A DNA stretch of 39,738 nucleotides, from contig JALEGR010000020.1 in assembly GCA_022763265.1 (NCBI GenBank), positions 1 to 39,738 on the forward strand, given 5' to 3'. Below are positions 2,589 through 27,637 of the stretch, piece after piece. This DNA comes from Minisyncoccota bacterium. Lineage in GTDB: Bacteria; Patescibacteriota; Minisyncoccia; Phycocordibacterales; CAJQIN01. Positions within the stretch are counted from its first letter, which is position 1. Every line of letters starts with the position of its first letter. Below the pieces are notes generated by a model, which saw nothing but the letters and a program-made list of their open reading frames with translations, did no database searches and had not been told where the DNA came from. Both the position numbers and the translations under genes were made by a program.

Positions 2589-3638
2589 TTGATCTTCTTC
2601 CAGAGGCTGCTTTGGTATTTGAGTCGATTCAGTACACTTTCCTTGATTGTGACATGCACTGTCCTTTTTTTTGGAGGATGGATGCTCATGGCATATTTTG
2701 AGGGTCCTGAATGTGGCTTCGTATCACCAGATGTCTTTTGGTGGTTTTTTATTGTCACTGGTACTACGGTTGGATATGGAGATTTCTCGCCAGTAACACT
2801 CGGTGGCAGGGTCACTGCTGCAATCATTATGATGGGTGGTATCGGTATATTTGCCGCCATTGTTGCAAAAATTACAGAACGAACAATCCAGTTCACACAA
2901 AGGAGAAACAAAGGCATGATCAATCTTCATATGAAGGGGCATGTAGTCATCTTTGGATATCGTGGTAAGGAAACTTCTCAGCTTGTCCGGGAACTTAGCG
3001 CTGATTCCGAAGGGGGTAGCGTGAAAATTGTCTTGTGTTCTGAAAACACAACTGAAAATCCTTTGAGTGGGGAAGCAGAATTTGTTAGTGGAGAGTTGAC
3101 GAGTGACGATGTTCTTGAAAGGGCCTGTGTGAATGATGCCAGGGGTGTAATTATCTATGGCAGAGATGATGCACAGACTCTAGCAGTTGGTATCGCAGTC
3201 AACAATGCCATGAAGAATGGTGCACATATTGTTGCCTATTTCGCACAGTCAGAAAATGCCATCCATCTGAAGAGGGTCAACTCAAAAATTGAGTGTGTAA
3301 CTGCTTTGTCGGTCCCACTTCTTGTTCAGGCCGTTCAGGATCCTGGCTCAACTGAGTCTATTGGAATTCTTGTAAGTAATCTTGATACTCAATGTACTCA
3401 ATACAGATTAAATCTTCCCACAACAATGGGGAGGGTCTTCTATGGTGAGTTGATGATCGCTCTCAAGAAGCGCTTCAATGCAACCATTATTGGTGTTGCT
3501 CGCTCTCATGACCACAATGCACAGGTTTGCCTTAATCTGGACGACAGTGTACAAGTTATTGGCGGTATGTCAGTTTTTTATATCGCCAAGTCACGCCTTA
3601 GTGTCGACCAGGTTGTTTCGTTAGTTAACGGTGCCTGA
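2589..3638 (+). CDS. two-TM potassium channel with C-terminal RCK/TrkA-N-like domain
   Basis: Selectivity filter TVGYGD (nt 2766-2783) sits between two hydrophobic helices. A Rossmann-like VVIFGYRGKETSQLVREL follows. TTG start lies 6 nt after the SD aagtgagg; the first in-frame ATG would delete TM1. Confidence 0.8.
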   Translation: MIFFQRLLWYLSRFSTLSLIVTCTVLFFGGWMLMAYFEGPECGFVSPDVFWWFFIVTGTTVGYGDFSPVTLGGRVTAAIIMMGGIGIFAAIVAKITERTIQFTQRRNKGMINLHMKGHVVIFGYRGKETSQLVRELSADSEGGSVKIVLCSENTTENPLSGEAEFVSGELTSDDVLERACVNDARGVIIYGRDDAQTLAVGIAVNNAMKNGAHIVAYFAQSENAIHLKRVNSKIECVTALSVPLLVQAVQDPGSTESIGILVSNLDTQCTQYRLNLPTTMGRVFYGELMIALKKRFNATIIGVARSHDHNAQVCLNLDDSVQVIGGMSVFYIAKSRLSVDQVVSLVNGA

Positions 3639-3654
3639 TTTACACAATCTTTCT

Positions 3655-3686
3655 AGCCGCTCGACATATGTCGAGCGGCTTCTTTT
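3655..3686 (+). terminator. rho-independent terminator (26-nt perfect palindrome)
   Basis: AGCCGCTCGACAT|ATGTCGAGCGGCT followed by tctttt. Confidence 0.75.
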
Positions 3687-3690
3687 AATA

Positions 3691-3719
3691 TTGACAAATA
3701 GGCATAAATTTGTTAATAT
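3691..3719 (+). promoter_or_regulatory. sigma70-type promoter TTGACA-17-TAATAT
   Basis: Exact -35 at 3691-3696 and -10 at 3714-3719, upstream of the 3780-8332 gene string. Confidence 0.6.
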
Positions 3720-3779
3720 CGCGAAGGAAATTTTGTTTTTTGACAACACAATCCTTACAAATGAAAGGAAGGAAAACGG

Positions 3780-4277
3780 ATGAAGTTGCTAATCTTTCTT
3801 GCAGTGATCGGAGCTATTGCTTTTGTTGTATACAAGTTGTCCGTAAAAAAGAAAGCCAATCCTGTTCAGGAGAAGGATCCAGTTAATGAACCTGAAGACA
3901 AGACAGTTGAAAACATTAGTATTCTTCAGGATCTCAATCTTCATGTTAGGAAGCATAGTCTTCCTGAATGTGTAATCCAGTCATTTGAATCTGTTGTTGA
4001 CTCTCTTCGAAGCTTGCTTCCGAGGGTTAACTCGGAACGTCCGAGCATGGATATTGTCTGGGTGGTGAATCGCATTGCGAATAAACATCTCCCGGAAATT
4101 ACTATGCGGTTTGTTTCCTTGTCTTGCGATGCACAAAACAGTAGTGCCAATCAGTTCATGAGTTCTATGAATGAACTTGATAAGGAACTGGGCGACATCA
4201 ACGACATTCTCGATTCACAAGACCAGCAGTTGTTTACGAATAAGGCGGAGTTTATCCGTCGTCGTTACGCACTTTAA
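3780..4277 (+). CDS. membrane-anchored helical protein, XpaC-like by position and architecture
   Basis: SD gaaaggaagg. N-terminal TM (LLIFLAVIGAIAFVVY) and a helical C-terminus. Lies directly upstream of a TelA-like gene, as xpaC does with yaaN in B. subtilis (from memory). Family assignment is unverified. Confidence 0.35.
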   Translation: MKLLIFLAVIGAIAFVVYKLSVKKKANPVQEKDPVNEPEDKTVENISILQDLNLHVRKHSLPECVIQSFESVVDSLRSLLPRVNSERPSMDIVWVVNRIANKHLPEITMRFVSLSCDAQNSSANQFMSSMNELDKELGDINDILDSQDQQLFTNKAEFIRRRYAL

Positions 4278-4316
4278 CCAACAACCAAACTTATCATTTC
4301 AGGAAAGGAACAAAAC

Positions 4317-5474
4317 ATGAGCAGTGAAGATAAACGAGAAGAAAAAACTGTTGCTGTAATTGTTAAGCCCAAGGGGCTTGATGAAGCTCAGGAACAGGAG
4401 CTGATCAGTGAAGCCGATAAAGTTGTCCAGATGGTTTTGAGTAACCCTCAGGACAGACAGTTGCCTGATAAGATCCAGGCTATTGGCCGCGATGCCCAAG
4501 AAGGGGCAAGTCGCAAAATTCAACTTCTGGATGCTCGACTTGGTAGTCTAATGAGTGATGCAACGGATGACGAATCCAAAATAACCCAGGGTCTGATTGA
4601 TCTTCGTGTTAAAATGGATCAGATTAATCCTCATACACTCGGCAAGCCTCCGGTGATTGTCCAGAAGTTTCCGTTCCTTACACCTTTTTGGAGTGCTTTG
4701 GGTCTTTTGCCCAATGCTAGGACGGTTTTGACCAAGATCAAGGCGCGTCATCAGACCGTTAAGACTAGTTTGGACTCGATCATTGAAGGTCTTTTTGCCG
4801 GAAAAGATGTTCTCTTGGAGGACATTGTTGAGCTGGAAGCCTTGTACCAAGGTGTACAAGTCCACCAAGCTGATATTCAGCAAAAGGCTTATGTTTGCGA
4901 TATGATTATGGAAGCACTTGACGAAAAGTCAAAGACAGCTGGAGACGAACTTGATAAGCAGCGCATTTCGATGCTTCTGCATCAAGTTGCGACAAAGGCC
5001 CAAGACTTGCGTACCATGGAGCAGGCGAATGAGCAATTCTTTGTCTCCCTGGACATGACGATCGAGGGTAATCGAACGCTTTCCGGACAAATTGATCGGG
5101 TAGCTACGGTTACCAGGGCCTTGTTGGCAATTGGTATTGCTATCACTGCCGCACTTCAAAGGCAACGTAAGGTTGCTGGTGCAGTTCAAGCAGGTCAAGA
5201 TTACGCTGGTGATCTTCTGGTGAATAACGCCAGTAACGTACGTACCCAAAGTGTGCAGATTGCTGAAATGGCAAATAATCCAGTTATTGCAATCGCTAAG
5301 GCACAAGAGGCTCATGATAACCTTGCTGCTGCTATTGAAGAGACTGAACAGGTTCGTAACAGTGGTCTTGTCAAGGCTCGTGAGTCAATTGCGGCTCTCA
5401 AGTCCATGAACAGTACTCTGGCACCCAAGCGACAAGCATTGCATGATACAACGCAAAACCGTATTGGGGGATAA
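4317..5474 (+). CDS. TelA-like (toxic anion resistance family) protein, 385 aa
   Basis: Length and all-helical layout match TelA/YaaN. It follows the family pattern from the N-terminal acidic region, through ...KIQLLDARLGSLM...LIDLRVKMDQINP..., to the C-terminal ...NLAAAIEETEQVRNSG.... Recognition is from memory of YaaN, not a search. Confidence 0.6.
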   Translation: MSSEDKREEKTVAVIVKPKGLDEAQEQELISEADKVVQMVLSNPQDRQLPDKIQAIGRDAQEGASRKIQLLDARLGSLMSDATDDESKITQGLIDLRVKMDQINPHTLGKPPVIVQKFPFLTPFWSALGLLPNARTVLTKIKARHQTVKTSLDSIIEGLFAGKDVLLEDIVELEALYQGVQVHQADIQQKAYVCDMIMEALDEKSKTAGDELDKQRISMLLHQVATKAQDLRTMEQANEQFFVSLDMTIEGNRTLSGQIDRVATVTRALLAIGIAITAALQRQRKVAGAVQAGQDYAGDLLVNNASNVRTQSVQIAEMANNPVIAIAKAQEAHDNLAAAIEETEQVRNSGLVKARESIAALKSMNSTLAPKRQALHDTTQNRIGG

Positions 5475-5509
5475 GTTTCTAAACCAAACCATCAAAAGAA
5501 GGAGGTTCC

Positions 5510-6148
5510 ATGCTTCAAACAGCTGAACCGGTAAGCACTACTAAATCCTTTGATCGGATTCGTCGTCTCCAAAAGCCTTTGAGCAAAGAGGAGGCGGTGA
5601 ATGCCACGATTAAGGACATCAAGAAGGGTGGTTTCTTGGAATTCCAAGGTACCACTTACGAAGTTATTTCTGTCGGCTTGTATACCGAAACCAACAAAGA
5701 CTATTCCCAGAAAAAGAAATTCTTCAGTGTTGAGCTTGAACTCGTGGATGTCATGAGTGGCAAGACGCTTTGGATGGAATGGGAAGAAGACGATGAGGTT
5801 GAAATCTGTGTCTCTCAGAGCCGTCATTCTCTGCGTGAAGTTAGGAATGAGGACGGCGACGTCATTAGTGACCCCTGGGATTATACCGACGAGGGCGAAT
5901 GTCTAGTTTTCCAAGGTATATCCTATTGGTACGATGATGATTGGCCTTCTGTGTACAAACGCGAAGGTCAGGATGATGAAGACAAGGTATACATGCATGA
6001 CTTTGAGTCCGAAAATGGCACATGTCTTTCCATTGAGAAGTGGATTGACGATGATGACACTTGTGAATTTCAGGTCTATGTATCAAAAAATGTCAGAGCC
6101 AGTGAGATCCAGATCTTACAGATCGGAGATCAAAATGGTGGCCAGTGA
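5510..6148 (+). CDS. DUF4178-like protein
   Basis: SD gaaggagg. Matches the remembered family pattern: KKGGFLEFQGTTYEVISVGLY ... WMEWEEDDEVEI ... FQGISYWYDD ... CLSIEKW ... EIQIL. Unverified without an HMM. Confidence 0.45.
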   Translation: MLQTAEPVSTTKSFDRIRRLQKPLSKEEAVNATIKDIKKGGFLEFQGTTYEVISVGLYTETNKDYSQKKKFFSVELELVDVMSGKTLWMEWEEDDEVEICVSQSRHSLREVRNEDGDVISDPWDYTDEGECLVFQGISYWYDDDWPSVYKREGQDDEDKVYMHDFESENGTCLSIEKWIDDDDTCEFQVYVSKNVRASEIQILQIGDQNGGQ

Positions 6149-6692
6149 AATCTACGTTGACCAGAGTGCTACAGAGCTTAGGCTGACAGCATGTACTGGT
6201 GTTGTGGATACTAGGCAATTCAATGTTCTTGAATCAGGCAAGATTAACAGTCAAGACTGGGTTTTGGAGTTTGGGATTATTGGCGGAAGCCACTTCTTCA
6301 TTCTCTATGGCCCAGAAAATACGATCTTATCTGAAGTCTTTGCTTGTACGACAGTTGATCCTTGTGGCAGAATCCTTTTCCAGGGTGACCCGCGTGGTTC
6401 AGCTAATATGACATTCCCGATTCAAAAACTCGTTTACAGCTTCCAGTATCATCTTATTACTAACTGGGAGATTGCAGACCAAGTCATAAGGGAAATGGAA
6501 AGTGGTGCCTCTGGTAAGTCAGACAGGCTAGTTCTACTAGCACATGACTTCCCTCATAATCCTGAAGATACTCGTGTCCCCAAGACCATTGTGGAAGCGA
6601 GAGCTGATTCTTTGGGTCTAAAGATTCGAACTATACACTCATATCCACAGGAGGATATGCTTGTGCAAACAATTTCACGTGTAAACCTTTAA
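6135..6692 (+). CDS. hypothetical protein (185 aa), positionally equivalent to DUF2617 in actinobacterial DUF4178/DUF350/SpeE loci
   Basis: The ATG at 6135 is preceded by ggagat and overlaps the upstream stop by 14 nt. The longer 5934 start would run through the preceding gene. Confidence 0.5.
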   Translation: MVASEIYVDQSATELRLTACTGVVDTRQFNVLESGKINSQDWVLEFGIIGGSHFFILYGPENTILSEVFACTTVDPCGRILFQGDPRGSANMTFPIQKLVYSFQYHLITNWEIADQVIREMESGASGKSDRLVLLAHDFPHNPEDTRVPKTIVEARADSLGLKIRTIHSYPQEDMLVQTISRVNL

Positions 6693-6715
6693 CAAAAAAG
6701 AAGGAGGTATATCTT

Positions 6716-8332
6716 ATGATGAGATATGCTCATTGGACTTTGGTACTCTGCCTTTTTGCTCTTGTGGGCTGTGGCGGATACTCGAAGGAAGAGAAGAAAT
6801 CGGTTGAAGTTGCCAAGAAAGAGCTTGATGACGCTAAGGCGTACGTTCAAACCCAGAAGGCAAAATATGAGCGAACTAAGGCTCATGAAGACTTTGCTGT
6901 ATTTGTTCGATATGCTGAGGATGAGAACTGGGACAAGTTTTTCCAGGACGCATCTTCCGAGGTTATCCATGCTCAGGGTGTCTATGGAAAGGAAATCCTG
7001 CCCGTCCTTGAAAGAAATGACAACAAGGAATGGAATCAGTTGAATAGTAATTTGACTCGAATCCGAACCTCTTCAAGGAACGCTCGGGATTTAGCAAAGA
7101 AAGCCTTTCAGCGTCTTGACTTTCTTCGTGAGGTTAAGAAGAACGCACCTGAAATGATCAAAAAAGCTGAAGGGGAATTTCAGCAGGTTGTGACTATCGT
7201 CGAGGATGCTTCGGTTGTTACTGAAAAAGCCAAGACTGATCATGTCGACTCTGCCAAGGAAATTGGTTCACGCTTTGCTATTTTGACAAAGTGGCAAGAC
7301 GAAGCTGGTAAGGCACTGGCAACATCACAAGTGGAAATCAAAAGGGAATTCCCTGACTACTCCGCAATTGGTGATAGTACAGTCCTTGTCAGTTCGCATC
7401 TTGAGGCCGTTAAGGGACATGTCCCTAAGTACAAGGAACAGATTGCTCATTTGTATGAGAGCTATTCCAAAATTCTTGAGGATATGAAGGTTGAATACTG
7501 TGTTCAGGTTGGTCGGACGAGTTGGGATAACTCGTCTGACTTTAATACTGAAAATGATTACACCTATCCGGCTAAGCAGGTTTCTGAAGAAGTTTACACC
7601 TACTTTGCTGGGCTTTCTGACTCGACTGTGCTTGCTACGGGAAGTAGTTCCCCACGGGTCAAAATCAACAGTAAAATGTGGAATGCCTTGGGGATTTCTC
7701 CTCGAGCATATTGGCCCAGTAGTCATGATGATGCCGAATGGTGGATTAGTAATGTTTCTGAGAAATACTACCATCGGTACTCTATTGTGTCGGCTGGCGA
7801 ACAAAAAACTACTGATTGGGTCGCTGTCTCAGAAGATGTCTATGGGAAACATTGGGAAGATCTTGGTATGGCCATTCTTACCAAACCCTTTGGCGTCTTT
7901 GAAGATGATGTGATTGAAGAAGCTTCTCCTCCTGGAATGGCACTTGTCGGAAACTCAAAGTACGGTGAGTGGAAACAGGATAGCGGGGGCGGTGGTTCTT
8001 TTTGGGAGTTTTACGGTAAATACCAGTTCTACTCAATGCTATTGGGTGGAAACCGTTACTACCACTCCGAGTGGGATACTTGGAACCGCGACTATCGTGG
8101 TCGAGGTGCCTACTATGGTGTTGGCAGTAATGGGTATACAAGGTACGGCACATACAGTGACCGTGTTGCGAGCTCGCCTCGATACTCAAAGAGCACTTTT
8201 GCTTCCCAAGGAGGATTCAAGAGTGCGGCATCTGATGTTAAGTCTGGCAATTTCAACGCCAGCCGGACATCTACTGTTCGAGGTGCTGGTGCCTCCGCCA
8301 GAGGCGGTGGTCCTGGCGGTAGCGGTAAGTAG
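6716..8332 (+). CDS. large lipoprotein (538 aa): helical K/E-rich N-half, W/Y/G-rich C-half with YjfM/DUF1190-like tail
   Basis: SD AAGGAGG at 6701. Signal peptide plus lipobox LFALVG-C. The C-terminus (GGGGSFWEFYGKYQFYSMLLGG ... QGGFKSAAS ... RGAGASARGGGPGGSGK) resembles the E. coli YjfM tail as I remember it. Confidence 0.7.
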   Translation: MMRYAHWTLVLCLFALVGCGGYSKEEKKSVEVAKKELDDAKAYVQTQKAKYERTKAHEDFAVFVRYAEDENWDKFFQDASSEVIHAQGVYGKEILPVLERNDNKEWNQLNSNLTRIRTSSRNARDLAKKAFQRLDFLREVKKNAPEMIKKAEGEFQQVVTIVEDASVVTEKAKTDHVDSAKEIGSRFAILTKWQDEAGKALATSQVEIKREFPDYSAIGDSTVLVSSHLEAVKGHVPKYKEQIAHLYESYSKILEDMKVEYCVQVGRTSWDNSSDFNTENDYTYPAKQVSEEVYTYFAGLSDSTVLATGSSSPRVKINSKMWNALGISPRAYWPSSHDDAEWWISNVSEKYYHRYSIVSAGEQKTTDWVAVSEDVYGKHWEDLGMAILTKPFGVFEDDVIEEASPPGMALVGNSKYGEWKQDSGGGGSFWEFYGKYQFYSMLLGGNRYYHSEWDTWNRDYRGRGAYYGVGSNGYTRYGTYSDRVASSPRYSKSTFASQGGFKSAASDVKSGNFNASRTSTVRGAGASARGGGPGGSGK

Positions 8333-8377
8333 CGTTTATCTTTAAAACACTAACAAATAACCCGAAAGGAAACACAC

Positions 8378-9232
8378 ATGATTCTTAACCTTGCGACCTT
8401 GCTTCAGTCACTTGTTTTTTCTGCTGGCGAAATTGCCGCCATGATCGGCGTCCTATTTGTGGCCAAGTTGCTTGTTGACTTGTTCACTCAAGTTGAATAT
8501 GACGAAGAGATCGAAGGGCGTAGCAACCTTGCGGTTGCTTTGCATCGAGCTGGATTTTTTGCCGGTATCGGTATCGGTCTTCTGGCTACGGTCAGTGATG
8601 CTTCCGGACATTTCTGGAAAAGCATTGCTCTCATGTTCTGGGATGGTGCAAACATCGCATTCATGATGCTTATTGCCAAGTTTGTTCTTGATCAGGTTAT
8701 TATCCCTGGTGTTCAAAATACCAGGGAGATCCTGGACGGGAATCTGTCTGTAGCATGGGTTGAGTTCGGTGGCTATATTGCTACTGGTCTCATTGCCTAC
8801 GGCGCAGTCAGTGGTGAAGGTGGCGGACTTTTATCCAGCTATGTCTTCTTTGTCCTTGGGCAGGTGGCACTTGTTATTGTCACTGTTCTTTTTGAGAAGT
8901 TCACACCTTTCAATTTGATTAAGGAAATTCACGAGGGAAATGTCTCTGCCGGTGTTATGCTGTGTGGGATTCTCATATCTCTCGGTGTTGTTCTCGAAGC
9001 CAGTCTATCTGGTCCGTTTGTCGGATGGACGACTGATATATTCAGTTTCGTGGTTTATGCTGGTGTGGGACTTGTTTTCCTCTGGGCCATTTACTTGGCT
9101 GTGGATAAACTTTTCTTGCCCAATACAACCATGACTGTTGAGATTCAGCGTGACAGGAATGTCGGCGCCAGTGCTCTGACGGCCACGATGATGGTTGTCT
9201 GCAGCCTGGTTGTTGCACATGCTGCGCTCTGA
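8378..9232 (+). CDS. polytopic membrane protein with four DUF350 (YjfL)-type repeats
   Basis: Four internal units of TM-linker-TM share the motif E-I-x-x-G/R-N-x-[SAG]-[AV]: EIEGRSNLAVA, EILDGNLSVAW, EIHEGNVSAGV, EIQRDRNVGAS. Confidence 0.6.
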   Translation: MILNLATLLQSLVFSAGEIAAMIGVLFVAKLLVDLFTQVEYDEEIEGRSNLAVALHRAGFFAGIGIGLLATVSDASGHFWKSIALMFWDGANIAFMMLIAKFVLDQVIIPGVQNTREILDGNLSVAWVEFGGYIATGLIAYGAVSGEGGGLLSSYVFFVLGQVALVIVTVLFEKFTPFNLIKEIHEGNVSAGVMLCGILISLGVVLEASLSGPFVGWTTDIFSFVVYAGVGLVFLWAIYLAVDKLFLPNTTMTVEIQRDRNVGASALTATMMVVCSLVVAHAAL

Positions 9233-9254
9233 TCAAAAAACATGATCTTTTCTA

Positions 9255-9286
9255 ATGCCTTGCTCCTAACGGAGCAGGGCATTTTT
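9255..9286 (+). terminator. rho-independent terminator
   Basis: ATGCCTTGCTCC-taac-GGAGCAGGGCAT plus TTTT. Confidence 0.75.
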
Positions 9287-9287
9287 A

Positions 9288-9316
9288 TTGACTTTTTATT
9301 ATATTAGTGTATAATT
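9288..9316 (+). promoter_or_regulatory. sigma70-type promoter TTGACT-17-ATAATT
   Basis: -35 at 9288-9293 and -10 at 9311-9316, upstream of the SpeE-like gene. Confidence 0.55.
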
Positions 9317-9367
9317 GTGCGTTAGAGACCGTACATTGACTTTCAACCAAAATGGGAGGCTCGCATA

Positions 9368-11059
9368 ATGACGTCTGTTCAACTCGGCATTAATATGCCA
9401 AGAAAGCATGGGGTTGCCAGGATTCTGCTTGGCTCATCAATGTTTTTCACAGGAGCTAGTGGTTTGGTTTCCGAGTATGTTCTGGCAACTGTGGCTACAT
9501 ATATTCTCGGTAACTCTATTGAGCAAATGTCGATCACTGTGGCTCTTATGATGTGTGCCATGGGTATTGGTGGATGGGTCCAACGATTCATTAAAGACAA
9601 TGCTCTGATAGATAAGTTTATATTGCTTGAGACAATACTGGCACTTCTGATTGGGTTCGCTCCAATTTGTATCTATGCAGCCTTTGGGCTGATGGAGCAC
9701 CACTTTTATGTTGTTATGTACTTTTTCATGATTGCAATAGGTATGCTAGTTGGGTTTGAAATTCCTCTAGTCATGCGAATTAATGAGAAGTATGTAGGTG
9801 CTCTGAAGGATAATGCCTCTGAAATATTTGGAATGGATTACATCGGAGCATTTGTCGGAGCTTTAATCTGGGCACTCTTCTTGCTGAAGACATTTCCTTT
9901 AACGGAAATCAGCTTCCTGGTTGCTGGTAGTAACTTTATTGTTGCAATTGTGACCTTTGGTTACTTTGCTTCAAAGGGTTCAACTGTTAGGACCAAGACT
10001 CTGTTTGTTCTGATCATGTGTCTAGTTGCTCTACTGCTTTATGGCGGTCTGAGTAACAGAGCTTGGAGTAATAAATTAGAACAACGTCTTTACGACGATC
10101 CGATCATTTTAGCAGAAACCACTCGGTACCAACGGATTGTGGTTACTCACTACAACAAGACTGATGATTACCGTCTGTACATTAATGGCAATCTTCAGTT
10201 CTCGAGTGTGGATGAGGCTATTTACCACGAACTTCTAGTCCATCCGGTAATGAATTTGGCCAAATCCCACCAAAGAGTTCTCATACTTGGTGGTGGTGAT
10301 GGTCTTGCTGTACGGGAGGTTCTAAAATATCCGGACGTTTCAAGTATTCACCTTGTGGATCTTGATCCGGATATGGTCAGGATCTGTCGTACGCATCCGG
10401 CCCTGAGGGCATTAAATGGTGGTGCTTTTGATAGTGCCAAGATTACGACTTCTGTCCCTGATATCTCAACGAAGTATTTGAGAAGGGTTATGCAAGATTC
10501 ACCAGATTCTCCTCGTGGTGAGGTGATAAAGGAAAGAGTTGCTAGGGTTGAAGTTATCAACATTGATGCAGATCTTTTCCTTAATTCCGTAAAAGGACTT
10601 TGGGACGTTGTAATCATTGATTTCCCAGACCCGAGCTCTGTTGAGCTAACAAAGCTCTATAGCAAGCAGTTCTACCAGAAGCTGAGACGACTTCTGGCAC
10701 CTGGTGCTCTAGTCTCCATCCAAGCAACTTCTCCGTATCATGCCAAGGAAAGCTACCTGTGCATTAGGCGGACAATGGAAGCTGCTAGATTTAGCACTTT
10801 GCCCTACCATCAGAACGTTCCTTCGTTCGGGGACTGGGGGTGGTTTCTGGCAAGTACCGAAAAGGATTCATCGGTCATCCGAGTGCAAGCAGAAAATGTT
10901 GCTTTTGATGTTGATACTCGCTATATCACCAAGGATGTATTTCTTTCTTCCATGGTGTTTGGCAAAGGTTCTCTGACGTCAAAGCACAAGAAAATTAACT
11001 CCTTAATGGAGCCCAACCTGCTAGCATTCTATCGGGATGAAAGTTGGTTGATTGATTAA
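9368..11059 (+). CDS. membrane-anchored spermidine-synthase-like polyamine aminopropyltransferase (563 aa)
   Basis: About 7 N-terminal TM helices (aa ~17-228). The SpeE fold follows: VLILGGGDGLAVREV, LVDLDPDMV, NIDADLFL, IIDFPDPSS, LAPGALVSIQATSPY. Confidence 0.8.
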   Translation: MTSVQLGINMPRKHGVARILLGSSMFFTGASGLVSEYVLATVATYILGNSIEQMSITVALMMCAMGIGGWVQRFIKDNALIDKFILLETILALLIGFAPICIYAAFGLMEHHFYVVMYFFMIAIGMLVGFEIPLVMRINEKYVGALKDNASEIFGMDYIGAFVGALIWALFLLKTFPLTEISFLVAGSNFIVAIVTFGYFASKGSTVRTKTLFVLIMCLVALLLYGGLSNRAWSNKLEQRLYDDPIILAETTRYQRIVVTHYNKTDDYRLYINGNLQFSSVDEAIYHELLVHPVMNLAKSHQRVLILGGGDGLAVREVLKYPDVSSIHLVDLDPDMVRICRTHPALRALNGGAFDSAKITTSVPDISTKYLRRVMQDSPDSPRGEVIKERVARVEVINIDADLFLNSVKGLWDVVIIDFPDPSSVELTKLYSKQFYQKLRRLLAPGALVSIQATSPYHAKESYLCIRRTMEAARFSTLPYHQNVPSFGDWGWFLASTEKDSSVIRVQAENVAFDVDTRYITKDVFLSSMVFGKGSLTSKHKKINSLMEPNLLAFYRDESWLID

Positions 11060-11072
11060 GTCATATCGAAGA

Positions 11073-11102
11073 CCCCGGCACATATGTGCCGGGGCTTTTT
11101 TA
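11073..11102 (+). terminator. rho-independent terminator (22-nt perfect palindrome)
   Basis: CCCCGGCACAT|ATGTGCCGGGG followed by cttttttt. Confidence 0.75.
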
Positions 11103-11154
11103 TATTGCAACTCTGTGGTAGATTCTTTTATAGAGAAAGTTCTAAGAAAAGGAA

Positions 11155-11394
11155 ATGGCAATGCAAATGGAATATATTGGAGAACATTGGTATATCTGGT
11201 TGTCTGTTGTGGCATTTGGATATGCTTCTGCTCTGTACATCTTTTTCGGACTTTTGAGAAAAGCTAAACAGGAGGGTAGTTTATCTCAATCTGTATTCTT
11301 TTCATATACTTTCAAAATGATCGGCTTTGGCCTTATTGGAACTAGTGGTCTTATCTTTTTTGCACTTTCTTTAGTTTTCAATCTTAGGTCTTGA
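11155..11394 (+). CDS. small two-TM membrane protein (about 77-79 aa)
   Basis: SD aaggaa. Three alternative ATGs at 11155, 11161 and 11167. Two hydrophobic helices. Own terminator. Confidence 0.5.
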   Translation: MAMQMEYIGEHWYIWLSVVAFGYASALYIFFGLLRKAKQEGSLSQSVFFSYTFKMIGFGLIGTSGLIFFALSLVFNLRS

Positions 11395-11401
11395 AAAACT
11401 T

Positions 11402-11423
11402 AACCCCACTGGAGTGGGGTTTT
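11402..11423 (+). terminator. rho-independent terminator
   Basis: CCCCAC-tgga-GTGGGG plus TTTT. Confidence 0.7.
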
Positions 11424-11504
11424 ATGTATTGACTTTTTATAAAAATTACGATAGTTTCAGAAAAGAGCTGTGGGAGTCTCAAAAACACCAAAAGGAGCTT
11501 TAAC

Positions 11505-11813
11505 ATGCGGAAAATGGGATCCAGTAAGGGTTTTGCCCTTATCGAGCTACTGGTTGTTATTAGCATCATTGGTATTCTCTGTATTGCTTGTTTAATCGGA
11601 ACTGCTGCTTTTGTTGGAAATTTCTGGTTTACCGAAGGTGGCATCTTGAGAAAGGCTCAGTTGCAAGATGAAAGCCTGGTTTCTGTTCGGGATGTGAGAA
11701 GGAATATTTTCTCATATTCTGTTGTCATCATCGAGAACAGTGATGGAGAAAGAAAGACAGTCAACGTTGGGTCAAATATTTTGTTTAGCTACGATCTTGA
11801 AGAAACTGAGTGA
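11505..11813 (+). CDS. prepilin-type N-terminal cleavage/methylation domain protein (small pilin or pseudopilin, 102 aa)
   Basis: Class III signal MRKMGSSKG|FALIELLVVISIIGIL with Glu at +5. SD aaaaggag. Confidence 0.75.
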   Translation: MRKMGSSKGFALIELLVVISIIGILCIACLIGTAAFVGNFWFTEGGILRKAQLQDESLVSVRDVRRNIFSYSVVIIENSDGERKTVNVGSNILFSYDLEETE

Positions 11814-11830
11814 GCTTTGCCATTCAATGT

Positions 11831-11858
11831 CCCGCACCATGTGCGGGGCTTTTCTTTT
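11831..11858 (+). terminator. rho-independent terminator
   Basis: CCCGCAC-cat-GTGCGGG followed by gcttttcttttt. Confidence 0.7.
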
Positions 11859-11921
11859 TACCTATATTATAGTACTATCCTTAATTGGAACTGTTTTACC
11901 TCTTTTCATAAGGAACGCTGT

Positions 11922-12146
11922 ATGTTGAATGGTGCTGTTTGTCGTTCGAGGCCCCCTAAGAGTCTTCCCGATGCAAAATCTCTTCTGGATAAGAAGTTGG
12001 CGACTCTTCCTGTCAAAGACCGGGACGAGATCAGGGCTGTCATGGAAGGGAGAAATGTCAAATCTGAGACCATAAGGAAAATCCTGAGGAAACATGGGTT
12101 CAAGGGTCGGGCCAAGCAGCTGGTTACCAGCAGGTTGAAAATGTAG
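11922..12146 (+). CDS. small basic protein (74 aa), possible HTH
   Basis: The ATG at 11922 follows aaggaa. The longer 11817 start would read through the terminator at 11831. K/R-rich. No firm domain call. Confidence 0.4.
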   Translation: MLNGAVCRSRPPKSLPDAKSLLDKKLATLPVKDRDEIRAVMEGRNVKSETIRKILRKHGFKGRAKQLVTSRLKM

Positions 12147-12155
12147 AAAAGGTAC

Positions 12156-12180
12156 GCGAGGACTAAGGTCCTCGCTTTTT
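12156..12180 (+). terminator. rho-independent terminator
   Basis: GCGAGGAC-taag-GTCCTCGC plus TTTTT. Confidence 0.75.
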
Positions 12181-12188
12181 GCTATACT
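12180..12188 (+). promoter_or_regulatory. extended -10 (TGcTATACT) 6 nt upstream of the zwf ATG, implying a leaderless mRNA
   Basis: No SD. An ATG at 12195 would be at or next to the predicted +1. Confidence 0.45.
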
Positions 12189-12194
12189 GTCTCC

Positions 12195-22360: not shown

Positions 22361-23281
22361 ATGGACAAGAATCAATTATTACAATTAGTAAAAGAGTCAG
22401 TAGATAAGGGAGAGATATCCAAATCTGAAGTAAACTCTCTTTTCCAAAAAGATGGAAATCACGCAAGTAGGATTATCAACATTCTGTATGCTATCGGTGG
22501 AATAGTTATTCTAGCTGGTGTCATTGCACTAATCGCTCAAAACTGGGAAAGCTTACCTTCATTTGCAAGAATCCTGACCACCCTTGGCATGTCTATAGCT
22601 TTATATCTTGCCGCTTCTCTAGTCGTAAAAAGTAAAGAAGTTCTTTCACAAGTTCTGGCCGCAGTTTCTTTTGCGCTACTTCCTGTTGGTATAGGTGTTT
22701 CAATGTATGAAGGAGGGTCATTGATCGATAGGCCAGTTGATTTTGTTGTAATCTCTGGAATATCAACAATAGTTTCTGTAATATCGTATTTCACATTAAA
22801 GAAACTTCCTGTAACTATAATCTTCAACACCGTCTTCATTACAGCCCTAACATATAGTTTCGTATCACTAATCATGGAGAATGTCGGCTACACTGAGTTT
22901 AATGTATTCACCTATCTAACCATGGCTATTGGTATCTCGTACATAATTTTAGGAAGATATCTTTCTAACGAAAGATTAAGACAGCTACTTGTATCTATTG
23001 GAACACTAGGGCTTTTGATTGCAGGTATAACTCTTTCTGGACTTTGGGATGTTCTCTACATATTTATATTGTTTGCAGTATTTTTATTGAGTTCATATTG
23101 GAAGAAAAGATCAATGCTTGTCTTTGGGTCAATCTTCCTAATCTCCTATCTTTTTGAAATTACTTCAAAATATTTTGCCGGAAGTGTTGGCTGGCCAATT
23201 GCTCTAATTCTCCTTGGAATTTTGACAATTGCAATTGCCATAGTAACCTTTAGGGTTAGTAGAAAATATATAAATGAATGA
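22361..23281 (+). CDS. polytopic membrane protein (306 aa), possibly DUF2157-like
   Basis: Short soluble N-terminus followed by about 8 hydrophobic helices. Confidence 0.55.
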   Translation: MDKNQLLQLVKESVDKGEISKSEVNSLFQKDGNHASRIINILYAIGGIVILAGVIALIAQNWESLPSFARILTTLGMSIALYLAASLVVKSKEVLSQVLAAVSFALLPVGIGVSMYEGGSLIDRPVDFVVISGISTIVSVISYFTLKKLPVTIIFNTVFITALTYSFVSLIMENVGYTEFNVFTYLTMAIGISYIILGRYLSNERLRQLLVSIGTLGLLIAGITLSGLWDVLYIFILFAVFLLSSYWKKRSMLVFGSIFLISYLFEITSKYFAGSVGWPIALILLGILTIAIAIVTFRVSRKYINE

Positions 23282-26200
23282 TTACGATCACAAGAAGATA
23301 GAGGGGAAGTGGCAAAAAGAGTGGGAAAAACAAGAGTTGTACAAAGTAGAGGATAAAGATAAGGATAATTTCTATACTTTAGTTGAATTTCCATACTCAT
23401 CAGGAAACCTTCATATTGGTCATTGGTATACTTTTGCTGTACCTGACATATACGCAAGATATATGAGGATGACTGGAAAGAATGTCCTGTATCCAATAGG
23501 TTTTGATTCTTTTGGTTTGCCTGCTGAAAATGCTGCTATAAAAAGAAATTTAAACCCAAAAAAGTGGACTGATGAAAATATTGAGTATATGAGGGGACAG
23601 CTAAAGTCTATTGGTGCTTCTTTTGATTGGTCTAGAGAGCTAAAGACATCAGATCCTGATTACTATAAATGGACACAATATATCTTTACAAAGATGTTTG
23701 AGAAAGGTTTGGCGTATAAGTCAGAAGCTGCAGTAAACTGGTGTCCTTCTTGTATGACGGTTTTGGCTAACGAGCAGGTTGTAAATGGGTTATGTGAAAG
23801 GTGTGATACTGAAGTAGAGAAGAAAAAACAGGAACAATGGATGTTGAAGATCACAGATTATACTGAGGATCTTTTGAGTGGTCTAGATGATCTTGATTGG
23901 CCAGAGGAGATAAAGGAATCACAAAGAAACTGGATTGGCAAAAGTAGAGGAATGCTTTTGAAGTTTAAGGTGGGTGATGGAGAGGTTTCCGTTTTCACCA
24001 CAAGACCTGACACTATATGTGGTGTTACATATATAGTTCTTGCCCCAGAACATCCATTGATTGATAAGTTAGATATTAATAATAGGAAGGAGGTAGAAGA
24101 CTATATCGGGAAGTCACTCAAAAAAACTGAACTAGAAAGACAAACAGATCAGAAAGAAAAGACTGGTGTAAAACTAGAAGGGGTTTTTGCTAGGAATCCG
24201 ATAACTAATGAAGAGGTGCCAGTATACGTTGCTGATTATGTTCTAGCAGCATACGGAACAGGTGCTGTTATGGCAGTTCCAGCTCATGATGATAGAGACT
24301 TTGATTTTGCTAATAAGTTTGGGTTGCCAATTAAAGAAGTTGTAATACCAAATAGAGTTGATAAAAAAAATCCACCAGTTCCTGGAAAGAAATCAGTAGA
24401 AAGACAAAATGTACATGTTGTTGTAAAGAATCCAAAAGATGGAAAGTATCTTCTACTGAAATGGAAAGAGTATGACTGGACAACGTTTCCAATGGGTGGA
24501 GTTGAGGAAGGTGAGTCTCTGATTGAAGCTGCCAAAAGAGAGGTTCTAGAGGAAACGGGATATAAGAATTTGATTAATGGAAAAGTTCTTGGTGGTCAAG
24601 TTAGAGCTGAATATTTTGCAGCTCATAAAGATGAAAATAGGGTTTCTTTCACTAACCTAGTTACTTTTGATTTGGAGAATGAGGAACAAGATGAGGTTGA
24701 TGAGGAAGAATCCTCAAAACATGAGGTATGTTGGGTAGATGGGAAAGATCTAACTTTAGAGAAAATGACCCATGCTGAAATGGATGTGTGGATTTCAAGA
24801 TTAGACAAAGAATCTGGGGCATATACAGGGGATGGTGTGTTAGTTAACTCAGATGCAAGACTTCCTATATTCGGCAAAGAACATGAAAATGAAGAGTTTA
24901 GAAAAACAATTACTGGCATTGTTCAGAGAAAAGACGGAAAAATACTTTGTGTAAAATGGAAAGAGTTTGGATGGACATCTCTACCTATTGGAGGAATAGA
25001 TAAGGGTGAATTACCAGAGGAAGCAGCTCCTAGGGAGGTTCTAGAAGAAACTGGGTATAAAACTAAAGTTGTTAGGAGAATTGGGGGTCCAGTCGAAATG
25101 CATTTCTATGCAGAGAATAAGAAAGTATGGAGAAATAGGTTAGACCAAGCTGTTCTTCTGGAGCTGATAGATGACAAACAAGAAGACATTTCTAAAGAAG
25201 AAACAGAAAGACATGAATGTATGTGGCTTAATCCAGAGGAAGCAATAAATAATATGACTCACCCGGAGAATAGGCTTTGTCTAGAAAGGTTGGTGAGATC
25301 CGATGATTCATATACAGAAGGTGCAGATGAAATAAAAGGATATAACTTTAATGGTATACCTAATACCAAAGTCGAAATACCCGGAGAGAAAAAGACTACA
25401 TATAGGCTACGAGACTGGTCAGTTGGTAGACAAAGGTATTGGGGTACACCAATACCTGTAGTATATGATCCAGAGGGTAATCCTCACCCTATACCAGAAG
25501 AGAATTTACCATGGACTTTACCAGAAGATGTAGACTTCAAGCCAACTGGAGAACCTCCTCTTGCCAAATCAAAGGAATTGAAAGAAAGAACTGAAAAGAT
25601 TTTTGGTGAAGGTTGGAGACCAGAAGTTGAGACTATGGATACCTTCTTAGACTCTTCATGGTATTTCCTTAGATATATTGATCCCAGAAATAAAAAGGAA
25701 ATTTCATCTAAAGACATACAGAAAAACTGGATGCCAGTAGATCAATATTTTGGTGGTTCAGAGCACACTACCATGCATCTTCTTTTTGCTAGATTCTTCC
25801 AGAGGGTACTATATGACCTTGGGATGGTAACTGAGCAAGAACCATTCAAAAAGAGACTGAACAGAGGCCTTATAATGGGCCCAGATGGCTCAAAAATGAG
25901 CAAATCGAAGGGTAATGTCGTTGATCCAGATGAAGTAGTGGAAAGAGTTGGGGCTGACACCGTAAGGATGTATCTAGCTTTTATTGGTCCGTATGCAGAG
26001 GTTGGATCATATCCGTGGGATATGGGTGGTATTGTAGGTATTAGAAGGTTCCTAGAAAGGGTTAACTCTATAAAAATTACTGAGTCTAGCGATGCTATAA
26101 AAAGCTTACTACAGAAAACAATCAAAAAAGTTACGGATGATTTTATATTATTTAAGTTCAACACTGCTATTAGTAGTCTTATGATCTTTTTAAACTCTGT

Positions 26201-26555
26201 TCAAAAGGAAGGTATTGGAAAAGATGAGTATCTAGTGTTTCTGAGACTTTTAGCACCATTTGCACCACACTTATTAGAAGAGCTGTGGAAAAAGTCTGGC
26301 ATGAAAGAGTCAATTCATCTAAGTAAGTGGCCGAAGTATGATGAGAGTATGGTAGTAGAAGAAGGAGTCAAAGTTATGGTTCAAATTGATGGAAAGGTTA
26401 GAGGATCTATCTTGGTAGATAAGGATATTTCTGATAATGAGTTAGAAAAAATTGTAACTTCAGATGAGAAATTATCAGGATGGATATCTAAAGATTATGA
26501 AGTTAAAAAAGTAGTCAAAAACAGACTAATTAGTCTAATTAATAAAAGTGCTTGA
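23274..26555 (+). CDS. leuS: leucyl-tRNA synthetase with two inserted Nudix domains (1093 aa)
   Basis: LeuRS signatures: LHIGH, Cys cluster CPSC..CERC, CP1 editing motifs TTRPDT and YGTGAVMAVPAHDDRD, YRLRDWSVGRQRYWG, KMSKSKGN. Two canonical Nudix boxes at nt 24495-24563 and 24990-25058. Confidence 0.9.
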   Translation: MNDYDHKKIEGKWQKEWEKQELYKVEDKDKDNFYTLVEFPYSSGNLHIGHWYTFAVPDIYARYMRMTGKNVLYPIGFDSFGLPAENAAIKRNLNPKKWTDENIEYMRGQLKSIGASFDWSRELKTSDPDYYKWTQYIFTKMFEKGLAYKSEAAVNWCPSCMTVLANEQVVNGLCERCDTEVEKKKQEQWMLKITDYTEDLLSGLDDLDWPEEIKESQRNWIGKSRGMLLKFKVGDGEVSVFTTRPDTICGVTYIVLAPEHPLIDKLDINNRKEVEDYIGKSLKKTELERQTDQKEKTGVKLEGVFARNPITNEEVPVYVADYVLAAYGTGAVMAVPAHDDRDFDFANKFGLPIKEVVIPNRVDKKNPPVPGKKSVERQNVHVVVKNPKDGKYLLLKWKEYDWTTFPMGGVEEGESLIEAAKREVLEETGYKNLINGKVLGGQVRAEYFAAHKDENRVSFTNLVTFDLENEEQDEVDEEESSKHEVCWVDGKDLTLEKMTHAEMDVWISRLDKESGAYTGDGVLVNSDARLPIFGKEHENEEFRKTITGIVQRKDGKILCVKWKEFGWTSLPIGGIDKGELPEEAAPREVLEETGYKTKVVRRIGGPVEMHFYAENKKVWRNRLDQAVLLELIDDKQEDISKEETERHECMWLNPEEAINNMTHPENRLCLERLVRSDDSYTEGADEIKGYNFNGIPNTKVEIPGEKKTTYRLRDWSVGRQRYWGTPIPVVYDPEGNPHPIPEENLPWTLPEDVDFKPTGEPPLAKSKELKERTEKIFGEGWRPEVETMDTFLDSSWYFLRYIDPRNKKEISSKDIQKNWMPVDQYFGGSEHTTMHLLFARFFQRVLYDLGMVTEQEPFKKRLNRGLIMGPDGSKMSKSKGNVVDPDEVVERVGADTVRMYLAFIGPYAEVGSYPWDMGGIVGIRRFLERVNSIKITESSDAIKSLLQKTIKKVTDDFILFKFNTAISSLMIFLNSVQKEGIGKDEYLVFLRLLAPFAPHLLEELWKKSGMKESIHLSKWPKYDESMVVEEGVKVMVQIDGKVRGSILVDKDISDNELEKIVTSDEKLSGWISKDYEVKKVVKNRLISLINKSA

Positions 26556-26596: not shown

Positions 26597-27637
26597 ATGG
26601 ATAAGACAAATAACAAAATCACATTTAAACCAAAACAGGTAACAAAGAACCTGATTGCTGTTCTTAACGACCGGGCAAAAGACGTTATTATAAGCCGATA
26701 CGGTCTTGGTAAAGATACAGAGCGTTTAACTCTTGAGGCTATAGGCCAAAAATATGGTATTACACGAGAGCGTGTAAGACAGATTGAGAATCATTCTCTT
26801 AATCAAATAAGAAAATCAGAAGCCTATGATAAGGAGACTTCTGTTTTTGATGATTTAAAGAGTTACATAGATGACCTTGGAGCTATTGTTTCAGAAGAAG
26901 ACCTCCTAGAGACAATTGCAAAAGATGATAGTACTAGGAACCATATCCATTTCCTACTTGTTCTCGGACATCATTTTATGAAAGATAAGGAAGATGATAA
27001 TTTTGCTCACAGGTGGTATGTAGACAAAGAGGTAGCTGATGAAATTCATGGAGTACTTGATAAGGTTTACAAGAATCTTTCAGATGATGACATTATTCCG
27101 GAGTCAGAAATGATTTCTGACTTTCTAGATTATGTAAAAGATGTTTCCGATAAGCATAGAGATGAAGAAGTTGTCAAAAGGTGGCTTAGACTTTCAAAGA
27201 AGATTGGCCGAAATGACTTGGATGAATGGGGAAGGTCAACATCACCAAATATTAATGTGAAAGGTATTCGTGATTATGCATTCCTTGTAATTAGAAGGCA
27301 TGGATCACCAATCCACTTTAGGGAGGTTGCTAAGTCTATTAACGAAATCTTTAACAAGAAAGCACATGAGGCTACAACTCATAATGAGTTAATTAAGGAT
27401 CCAAGGTTCGTTCTAGTTGGAAGGGGTCTATATGCTCTTACAGAATGGGGATACACTAGTGGAGTTGTAAAGGATGTTATTAAAGAAATACTTGAAAAAA
27501 ATGGTCCACTAACTAAAGATGAGGTTATTGAGAAGGTTCTTAAGGAAAGATACGTGAAGGAAAACACAATTATGGTAAACCTTCAGAATCCAAACTACTT
27601 TAAGAAGACAAAGGAAGGAAAGTATACTCTAGCGTAA
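26597..27637 (+). CDS. DNA-binding protein with sigma-70 region-4-like HTH and C-terminal HARE-HTH-like domain
   Basis: LTLEAIGQKYGITRERVRQIENHSLNQIRK matches sigma r4. IHFREVAKSI...FVLVGRGLYALTEWGY resembles HARE-HTH or RpoE-N. Confidence 0.55.
   Translation: MDKTNNKITFKPKQVTKNLIAVLNDRAKDVIISRYGLGKDTERLTLEAIGQKYGITRERVRQIENHSLNQIRKSEAYDKETSVFDDLKSYIDDLGAIVSEEDLLETIAKDDSTRNHIHFLLVLGHHFMKDKEDDNFAHRWYVDKEVADEIHGVLDKVYKNLSDDDIIPESEMISDFLDYVKDVSDKHRDEEVVKRWLRLSKKIGRNDLDEWGRSTSPNINVKGIRDYAFLVIRRHGSPIHFREVAKSINEIFNKKAHEATTHNELIKDPRFVLVGRGLYALTEWGYTSGVVKDVIKEILEKNGPLTKDEVIEKVLKERYVKENTIMVNLQNPNYFKKTKEGKYTLA

Follow-up and report, generated by a model that had tools for sequence, protein, structure and literature searches.

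What is a TelA-family protein doing among genes for membrane proteins and a polyamine enzyme, and how did such a gene cluster come to a member of the Candidate Phyla Radiation (CPR)? The question is raised by contig JALEGR010000020.1 of a Minisyncoccota bacterium (Pacebacteria; assembly GCA_022763265.1), which was analysed over its whole 39.7 kb (39,738 nucleotides; hereafter the window). Seven tightly packed genes on its + strand, at 3780-11059, encode in order a small membrane-anchored protein, a TelA-family protein, a DUF4178 protein, a DUF2617 protein, a lipoprotein, a DUF350 membrane protein and a membrane-bound relative of the polyamine aminopropyltransferase SpeE; together with a K+ channel gene on their left they make up a block of eight genes (2589-11059). 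An original prediction, made from the letters of the sequence, had described the seven closely spaced same-strand genes, and every coordinate that it gave was found again in the open reading frame (ORF) list. Its TelA, DUF4178, DUF350 and membrane SpeE assignments all lie above the curated cut-offs in Pfam/NCBIfam hidden Markov model (HMM) searches. To our knowledge, no mechanism is known for TelA, despite its wide distribution and its decades as a “toxic anion resistance” protein. The evidence set out below suggests, with a rough probability of 0.6, that the cluster is a conserved TelA-type variant of the PspA/polyamine/DUF350 class of membrane operons with a role in membrane homeostasis. Taken by itself, assignment to this operon class appears highly probable from the comparison of sequences and gene orders.

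Conserved Gene Order and Host Range

A scan anchored on the lipoprotein, with one genome per species, found 113 genomes with a relative, from which 80 loci were kept; the fetched loci, cited below by L numbers, were mapped with HMMs that were built from the proteins of the window and iterated. Upstream neighbors were counted in the 72 loci with at least 3.3 kb of upstream sequence, and downstream neighbors in the 70 loci with at least 3 kb of downstream sequence. On the upstream side the lipoprotein gene is accompanied by TelA in 66 of 72 loci, by the small partner in 67 and by DUF4178 in 68, with DUF2617 present in only 15; on the downstream side DUF350 occurs in 69 of 70 loci and SpeE in 68. 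The small partner gene is located directly upstream of TelA, DUF4178 comes next after TelA, and DUF350 follows the lipoprotein. The original prediction had been staked beforehand on synteny of this kind, and the counts bear it out strongly. Five relatives of TelA were also read in their gene contexts. Three stand in a full operon of the order ~190 aa-TelA-DUF4178-DUF2617-~535 aa-DUF350-(K+ channel)-SpeE, with DUF2617 in two of the three. The fourth has a partial DUF350-DUF4178 set nearby, and the context of the fifth is unrelated.

The same order is shared by dozens of species in several phyla, which rules out a chance grouping of the genes. The GC content of the block, which departs from the rest of the contig, would agree with unrelated genes brought together by chance or with an assembly chimera, but this explanation is already refuted by the synteny and retains practically no probability. 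Both flanks, moreover, consist of low-GC, CPR-like housekeeping genes (Ddl on the left; pentose-phosphate enzymes, leucyl-tRNA synthetase and alanyl-tRNA synthetase on the right), and a chimera is unlikely because this content is shared by the two sides.

Most hosts are Desulfobacterales, represented by isolates such as Desulfospira joergensenii, Desulfobacter curvatus, D. vibrioformis and Desulfatibacillum alkenivorans, and further hosts belong to the Acidobacteriota, Bryobacterales, Cloacimonadota, Spirochaetales and Myxococcota. The CPR hosts besides the window are two metagenome-assembled genomes (MAGs), from Saccharibacteria and Moraniibacteriota. The composition had been thought special to a reduced genome; it is instead that of a widespread operon, found mostly in large Desulfobacterales genomes and not peculiar to a reduced one. 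A divergent, complete copy, annotated in RefSeq, is present on the Alteromonas mediterranea megaplasmid pAMCP48-600 in the order speE-speD-small-telA-DUF4178-lipoprotein-DUF350.

Several loci show arrangements of their own. In the Desulfatibacillum loci L005 and L008 the small partner gene stands directly upstream of DUF4178-DUF2617-lipoprotein-DUF350-SpeE, and in L008 the gene upstream of it encodes a chemoreceptor (MCP). A MAG labelled “Nanoarchaeota archaeon” (L006, JAYEPB010000049.1) contains a complete bacterial-type operon, lipobox lipoprotein included, which may be explained by mis-binning of the contig or by transfer between domains. In L088 (1-4068, 8001-9209), from a large genome, a TelA close to that of the window is found among transposases, ~4 kb from a divergent set of DUF350, DUF4178, DUF3326 and ornithine/arginine (Orn/Arg) decarboxylase genes, another polyamine-linked variant.

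Relationship to PspA-Linked Operons

Three related operon arrangements have been described, of the Shewanella, M. tuberculosis and E. coli yjf types (Ravi et al., 2024; PMC11237479). In the Shewanella oneidensis SO_3765 type, the “second major group,” a LipoSIG+Ctha_1186+low-complexity lipoprotein is followed by a YjfL/DUF350 protein with eight transmembrane segments (8TM), a 7TM-SpeE, CesT/Tir (DUF2170), PspA, DUF4178 and a ribbon-helix-helix (RHH) protein (PMC11237479). The window shares with it the DUF4178 protein, the 8TM DUF350 protein, the 7TM-SpeE and a lipoprotein with a low-complexity C-terminal tail. These four, which form the core of the PspA-linked class, stand in one cluster in the window, from which the PspA/IM30 and CesT/Tir (DUF2170) pair of the class is missing. 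The likeness between the two lipoproteins lies in the tail. In both operons DUF4178 is directly preceded by the genes for a small partner and for a helical protein of the cytoplasm, but the dyad consists of TelA and a TM-anchored helical protein in the window and of CesT/Tir and PspA in Shewanella. This agrees with the earlier proposal that TelA and its partner stand in the place held elsewhere by PspA and its partner. The window differs further in its permuted gene order, in the addition of DUF2617 and the K+ channel, and in having no RHH regulator. A tblastn search with an E. coli PspA sequence found no PspA in the window or in L001-L087, and none of the eight products matches the Pfam models of PspA or DUF2170.

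The M. tuberculosis arrangement, Rv2597-Rv2601 (speE), is free of PspA and runs from TM+DUF4178 through DUF2617, SIG+DUF4247 and YjfL/DUF350 to TM-SpeE (PMC11237479, supplement). The actinobacterial parallel drawn by the original prediction is real: the window repeats exactly the order DUF4178, DUF2617, secreted protein or lipoprotein, DUF350 and membrane SpeE. The order DUF2617-DUF4178 given in that prediction had to be reversed, since the supplement gives DUF4178 before DUF2617. In contrast to M. tuberculosis, where DUF4178 carries a TM segment, the window DUF4178 has none; the 538-aa lipoprotein is unrelated to DUF4247 and has no PF14042 match, DUF350 is doubled, and the TelA dyad and K+ channel are added.

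The parallel with E. coli yjfIJKLMC, also proposed earlier, holds as well (PMC11237479). That operon encodes DUF2170, the PspA-family protein YjfJ, DUF2491, the DUF350 protein YjfL, the DUF1190 lipoprotein YjfM and the peptide-spermidine ligase YjfC, and its relatives also carry a K+ channel (PMC11237479). Both combine a small partner and a helical membrane-stress protein with DUF350, a lipoprotein and a polyamine-handling enzyme. However, YjfC is an ATP-grasp peptide-spermidine ligase and the window enzyme an aminopropyltransferase, YjfL is a single 4TM unit, and YjfM is unrelated to the window lipoprotein (hhalign probability 0.4% against the family profile of the latter); the yjf operon contains neither DUF4178 nor TelA.

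The invariant core of the system is made up of an extracytoplasmic lipoprotein, an 8TM DUF350 protein, a 7TM-aminopropyltransferase and a cytoplasmic DUF4178 protein. TelA and its small partner hold the CesT/Tir-PspA position upstream of DUF4178, and DUF2617 and the ligand-gated K+ channel are accessories. TelA is mentioned neither by Ravi et al. (PMC11237479) nor in the supplement, and full-text literature searches, whose coverage did not extend to a 2019 article by Li et al. (Biochem J) about gene clusters with membrane SpeE/SpeD, found no description of a TelA-DUF4178/DUF350/SpeE operon. The core module was already described in 2024 with PspA, and the TelA version is apparently new.

TelA and Its Membrane-Anchored Partner

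The TelA-family protein (4317-5474, 385 aa) matches PF05816 with E=1.2e-43 (150 bits, cut-off 30), residues 50-369 aligning with positions 13-327 of the 332-position model. It is all-alpha, with one conserved hydrophobic helix at 262-280, and is predicted to be located in the cytoplasm; like the DUF4178 and DUF2617 proteins, it has zero predicted TM segments in the hydrophobicity profile. The closest relatives are 31-41% identical, and a sequence search of the PDB found no relative. The AlphaFold2 (AF2) model has a predicted local distance difference test score (pLDDT) of 58 and consists of long helical hairpins, for which Foldseek returned from the PDB only generic long-helix matches (AhlC/ClyA, PspA/Vipp1, BAR) at non-significant E-values of at least 0.005. 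The relation of TelA to PspA is one of position and possibly of function, not of family.

The small partner (3780-4277, 165 aa) contains one N-terminal TM segment, next to it a K-rich stretch, and then a ~120-aa helical domain that is predicted to face the cytoplasm; its ortholog alignments show conserved motifs. It had been called XpaC-like, a name that finds no support. PF10112 (XpaC) has zero matches at E<=10 in the protein and two orthologues, and the best 120 of the 347 clusters (at 90% identity) that make up its family are all “hypothetical” and have no Pfam domain. With neither a PF10112 match nor annotated relatives, the protein is, judged by its sequence, not an XpaC. Profile comparisons likewise indicate no relationship to the DUF3974 partner of TelA in Bacillus (hhalign 1.3%) or to E. 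coli YjfI (hhalign 0.4%), and a search of the PDB found no solved structure of a relative. As defined by these profiles, the small partner represents an unnamed family in its own right, made up of TM-anchored partners of TelA.

The likeness to XpaC is architectural only and includes the N-terminal TM segment, the helical domain and the position beside telA. In the Firmicutes xpaC-telA (yaaN) pair, too, the TelA gene adjoins a gene for a small membrane-anchored helical protein. By contrast, the window partner has no PF10112 match, and the Firmicutes pair has not been reported with DUF4178, DUF350 or SpeE. The Firmicutes pair has been linked experimentally to the envelope-active antimicrobials daptomycin, nisin and garvicin; it is induced under envelope stress and influences susceptibility to daptomycin and nisin, pathogens included, which offers independent hints of an envelope role (PMC6811118, PMC12791056). 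In E. faecium it is upregulated in a YycG S333L strain and modulates daptomycin binding and phospholipid domains (PMC6811118, PMC12791056). Further pairings were noted elsewhere. Locus L085 (2857-4878), in a 5.5-Mb record of Bacillus sp. N5-665 filed as a plasmid, contains a TelA paralogue followed by a TM-anchored DUF3974 protein, and the single TelA of this genome is paired with DUF3974 rather than XpaC; on Vibrio plasmids TelA paralogues are paired with vWA/OmpA proteins. Which small membrane protein a TelA-family protein recruits seems to depend on the lineage: XpaC, DUF3974 or a member of the present family.

Membership in PF05816 also raises the reading that the cluster is a literal determinant of tellurite or toxic-anion resistance, in agreement with a Listeria telA mutant that is twofold more sensitive to tellurite (PMC12791056). 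The same mutant is sensitive to nisin, however, and this effect is the larger one (PMC12791056). The name TelA records a plasmid phenotype, not a mechanism, and the other seven genes of the block have no link to tellurite, the partners being polyamine and membrane proteins. Such a resistance function is accordingly regarded as highly improbable.

The Lipoprotein, DUF350, DUF4178, and DUF2617 Proteins

The signature lipoprotein of the cluster (6716-8332, 538 aa) carries the lipobox LVGC, whose Cys19 is at least 90% conserved in the family, so that the lipidation signal seen earlier stands. The protein and its orthologues (three sequences) have zero Pfam matches at E<=10, PF06693 (DUF1190) and PF14042 (DUF4247) included, and the lipoprotein has zero NCBIfam matches. 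At 50% identity its family comprises 1090, 802 and 480 clusters at E<=1e-3, 1e-10 and 1e-30, respectively. Judged by these searches, it is a member of a large family without a Pfam model, and neither DUF1190 nor DUF4247. Because it is unrelated to DUF1190/YjfM and has no DUF4247 match, it is not simply a “four times larger” version of the known lipoproteins, as had been proposed. The AF2 model (pLDDT 86; predicted template modeling score, pTM, 0.74) includes a long helical bundle (~24-245), a beta-rich domain (~250-430) and a disordered Gly/Arg C-terminal tail, and found no fold match in the PDB at E<0.1 in a whole-chain search. The most conserved stretch of the protein falls in this predicted-disordered tail, at residues 517-538, and reads S[VI]RG[AS]GxxxRGxGPxxxGK-COOH. 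The C-terminus is Gly-Lys in 40/40 aligned members, and also in the distant homologue on the Alteromonas plasmid (L086, 8980-9159). The tail has no hydrophobic sorting helix.

The DUF350 protein (8378-9232, 284 aa) matches PF03994 at 1e-43 (149 bits, cut-off 26) over two stretches of the 133-position model. Its hydrophobicity profile contains ~8 hydrophobic segments, the arrangement of a doubled YjfL-like 4TM unit. The repetition of DUF350 had thus been recognized correctly and its fourfold count had not, two copies of the model accounting for the ~8 TM segments.

The DUF4178 protein (5510-6148, 212 aa) matches PF13785 with E=2.7e-11 (44.2 bits, cut-off 25) over model positions 2-134 of 136. 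It is soluble, and E60, E75, E90, W91, E92, D94, D95, D121, D143, D144 and E176 are conserved. The 185-aa protein encoded next to it (6135-6692), previously left as an unknown, is a DUF2617 protein (PF10936, E=1.8e-15, 57.8 bits, cut-off 22.3). Its mechanical ORF begins at 5934, and the Pfam match starts from residue 73 of that ORF, in agreement with the ATG at 6135. D9, H53, E67, H168 and E173 are at least 90% conserved among 13 orthologues and agree with the His/His/Asp/Glu signature of the family (PMC11237479). A search of the PDB found no solved structure for either DUF4178 or DUF2617.

The Membrane SpeE and the K+ Channel

The last gene of the cluster (9368-11059, 563 aa) encodes a protein that matches the NCBIfam equivalog model NF002956 (PRK03612) with 607.7 bits (cut-off 472) and PF01564 at 1.2e-33. 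The catalytic motifs are intact, with GGGDG (308-312), D331, D333, D400, D402, D418 and D421 conserved. The N-terminal domain, which consists of ~7 TM segments, is highly conserved and includes many conserved polar residues. The closest solved structures are soluble thermospermine and spermidine synthases. On the strength of these models and motifs, the protein is a membrane-bound polyamine aminopropyltransferase (7TM-SpeE). Other polyamine genes occur in related loci, namely speD on pAMCP48-600, an amine oxidase gene in one locus and an Orn/Arg decarboxylase gene with DUF3326 in another, and they speak for a genuine link with polyamine chemistry.

The K+ channel (2589-3638) is a 2TM protein with a cytoplasmic RCK/TrkA_N domain (Pfam Ion_trans_2 3e-10, TrkA_N 5e-8), an intact selectivity filter (TVGYGD) and an island-like GC content at third codon positions (GC3) of 0.40. 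Homologues adjoin the system in a number of loci, among them L001-L004, L009 and L016, and 26 of 86 loci have one within 9 kb; in the Saccharibacteria locus the channel gene is found just upstream of the cluster, as in the window. Since the channel gene belongs to the cluster by composition and, elsewhere, by synteny, the functional unit reaches left of 3780, and the channel is a recurrent accessory.

Composition and Probable Acquisition of the Block

The eight genes have a GC3 of 0.39-0.48, compared with 0.22-0.37 in 22 of the 23 other genes of the window (Mann-Whitney p=1e-4), and the overall GC content falls from 0.445 (2589-11094) through 0.402 (11095-12194) to 0.364 (12195-39738). The compositional island begins ~430 nt downstream of a tRNA-Ala(TGC) gene (2086-2162, + strand; ARAGORN; Rfam RF00005, 66.9 bits), which flanks the island on its left as context and is not a component of it. 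In most other hosts the GC3 of the system resembles that of its surroundings, and an unbootstrapped neighbor-joining tree groups the window weakly with two other CPR copies. The system as a whole is read as mobile, and horizontal acquisition is the most likely route by which it reached this Pacebacteria genome; the transfer may be old within the CPR, or may have taken place between CPR lineages.

An island beside a tRNA gene invites a further explanation, in which the block would be an anti-phage or abortive-infection island and the K+ channel could depolarize the membrane as the effector. The island-like GC3, the megaplasmid copy, the match of TelA to the PHROG “tellurite resistance” moron family (8.6e-8) and the historical association of TelA-type and Ter-type proteins with phage and colicin resistance all point in this direction. 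However, PADLOC-DB 2.0 matches none of seven of the eight proteins, and the sole match of SpeE is a generic one (mad2 model PDLC04134, 4.2e-15). The block includes no nuclease, ATPase or sensor typical of defense systems. Unlike typical defense islands, the operon of the Desulfobacteraceae has a GC3 like that of its host, and its flanking synteny is stable, with chromosomal neighbors that are themselves conserved, such as a recurring divergent GTPase-like gene (~615 aa). A defense role is therefore considered very unlikely.

Proposed Mechanism and Its Rivals

From the genes we infer the locations of the parts, every link between the proteins and the physiological role, including the membrane-damage sensing machine that the original prediction had envisaged. 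A step-by-step scheme can be offered only tentatively and is itself rather doubtful. The lipoprotein and the DUF350 protein would report on, or stabilize, the outer face of the cytoplasmic membrane, which would be the common site of action because the hosts include both monoderm-type CPR bacteria and diderms. The acidic-rich DUF4178 protein would be a cytoplasmic adaptor or polycation sensor linking the lipoprotein and DUF350 to TelA, joined where present by DUF2617, a putative enzyme. TelA, held at the inner face by the small protein as a tether, would form a helical membrane-proximal scaffold, an analogue and not a homologue of PspA. The membrane SpeE may use decarboxylated S-adenosylmethionine (dcSAM) to produce a polyamine or another aminopropylated product, made at the membrane, and the K+ channel could tune the ion balance. 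A bolder version would have TelA and its tether as a non-homologous stand-in for the PspA-CesT/Tir membrane-repair dyad. SpeE would then aminopropylate, or deliver polyamine to, a membrane or protein substrate rather than simply making free spermidine, with the ...RGxGPxxxGK-COOH tail of the lipoprotein as one candidate substrate; this is quite improbable.

Several observations weigh against a TelA-type variant of the PspA-linked class with a role in membrane homeostasis. Profile similarity between TelA and the PspA-family protein YjfJ is absent (hhalign probability 0.15%), and because the AF2 model is of low confidence and the fold matches are generic, the analogy with PspA is drawn from gene position alone. 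The Desulfatibacillum loci L005 and L008 retain the small partner without a TelA gene (~8100-9400), so that in some lineages the core can do without TelA. Hydrophobicity and charge leave it ambiguous whether the catalytic domain of SpeE lies inside or outside, and neither the window nor L001-L085 yielded a speD gene, which bears on the supply of dcSAM in a small genome. As for the acquisition, no integrase and no att repeat were found, nor a direct repeat of the tRNA-Ala 3′ end downstream. The GC3 of the system is also somewhat raised in two other CPR contigs, and for this reason the anomaly could be partly intrinsic to the genes. The roles proposed for all parts, in every carrier of the operon, are read from the genes.

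Some of these points favor a different emphasis, in which the system is mainly a device for polyamine synthesis or delivery. SpeE would make polyamine and translocate it to the outer face, the lipoprotein and DUF350 would hold or use it, for instance by masking negative charge against cationic peptides, and the TelA dyad would be only a regulator or accessory. The equivalog match and conserved catalytic motifs of SpeE, its transporter-like conserved polar TM residues, the speD, amine oxidase and Orn/Arg decarboxylase genes of related loci, the persistence of the core without TelA in Desulfatibacillum, and the conserved acidic residues of DUF4178, which could bind polycations, are all consistent with it. 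On the other hand, TelA and its partner are kept in ~92% of loci, too often for a dispensable accessory, the topology profile of SpeE is ambiguous, and the literature searched yielded no export or surface polyamine data for this enzyme class. A polyamine device of this kind, which overlaps with the preferred membrane-homeostasis reading more than it excludes it, is possible but unlikely.

Gene Spacing and Expression Signals

The gaps between the seven genes are, in order, 39, 35, -14, 23, 45 and 135 nt; DUF4178 and DUF2617 are the sole overlapping pair (14 nt). Purine-rich motifs resembling Shine-Dalgarno sequences precede all seven starts, that of DUF2617 being the weakest. The cluster had been divided earlier into two units delimited by promoters and terminators, and consensus sites are found where they were placed, all on the + strand. 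The K+ channel gene is preceded by a promoter-like site (2519-2546; TTGACA-16-CATAAT, 11/12 matches, a consensus match only) and followed by a terminator-like hairpin (3655-3680; 11-bp stem, 8 GC pairs, T-run). A promoter-like site then precedes the six genes from the small partner to DUF350 (3691-3719; TTGACA-17-TAATAT with an upstream TG, 10/12 matches), and a strong terminator-like hairpin closes this unit (9254-9283; 13-bp stem, 7 GC pairs, T-run). The aminopropyltransferase gene has its own promoter-like site (9288-9315; TTGACT-16-TATAAT, 11/12 matches), and the likewise strong terminator-like hairpin behind it (11073-11094; 9-bp stem, 8 GC pairs, T-run) closes both the cluster and the compositional island. 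In a consensus scan, terminator-like sites are more frequent than in shuffled sequence (21 vs 8.8 +/- 3.3) and promoter-like sites are not (12 vs 16.6). The promoters of the two units are consequently compatible with the claim but unproven; two transcription units, a six-gene unit and then the aminopropyltransferase gene, are plausible on these signals.

A hairpin with a T-run behind it is present at 2376-2393, between the tRNA-Ala gene and the promoter-like site that precedes the K+ channel gene. This region of ~350 nt (2163-2518) has no Rfam match at the gathering threshold and no listed ORF of at least 60 aa, the lists at that threshold beginning at 2500.

Neighboring Genes

The interval from the island to the glucose-6-phosphate dehydrogenase gene contains two small genes, at 11155-11394 and 11505-11813. 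They encode a hydrophobic protein of 79 aa and a protein of 102 aa whose N-terminus bears a prepilin-type methylation motif (PF07963), and strong hairpin terminators are found 3′ of both (11402-11421 and 11829-11849). Further to the right, the leucyl-tRNA synthetase ORF (23274-26555, 1093 aa) includes a NUDIX domain (PF00293, 8e-30, residues ~377-506) directly after the editing domain, an unusual fusion or insertion. A 346-aa protein (26597-27637) combines an N-terminal Sigma70 region 4 with a HARE-HTH domain further on, a non-standard architecture for a sigma factor, and a 280-aa protein (32371-33213) joins an N-terminal ATP-cone (NrdR-like) to an Mrr_cat restriction-endonuclease-like domain.

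Implications for TelA and for CPR Bacteria

The finding of TelA in a conserved operon, at the place that PspA takes in a sister operon, leads to a testable hypothesis, namely that TelA is a membrane scaffold that works with DUF4178, DUF350 and a membrane polyamine enzyme. It also ties together the M. tuberculosis speE, E. coli yjf and Shewanella PspA operons, and defines two sizeable protein families without a Pfam model, that of the signature lipoprotein and that of the TelA tether. If the TelA dyad does replace the PspA dyad and SpeE modifies the envelope, TelA would gain a mechanism, and a new polyamine-based envelope modification would be added to those known. For the CPR, the retention of an 8.5-kb block in an ultra-small genome suggests strong selection on membrane and polyamine homeostasis, and, should the same reading be true, bacteria with small genomes would have found in it a system worth importing.

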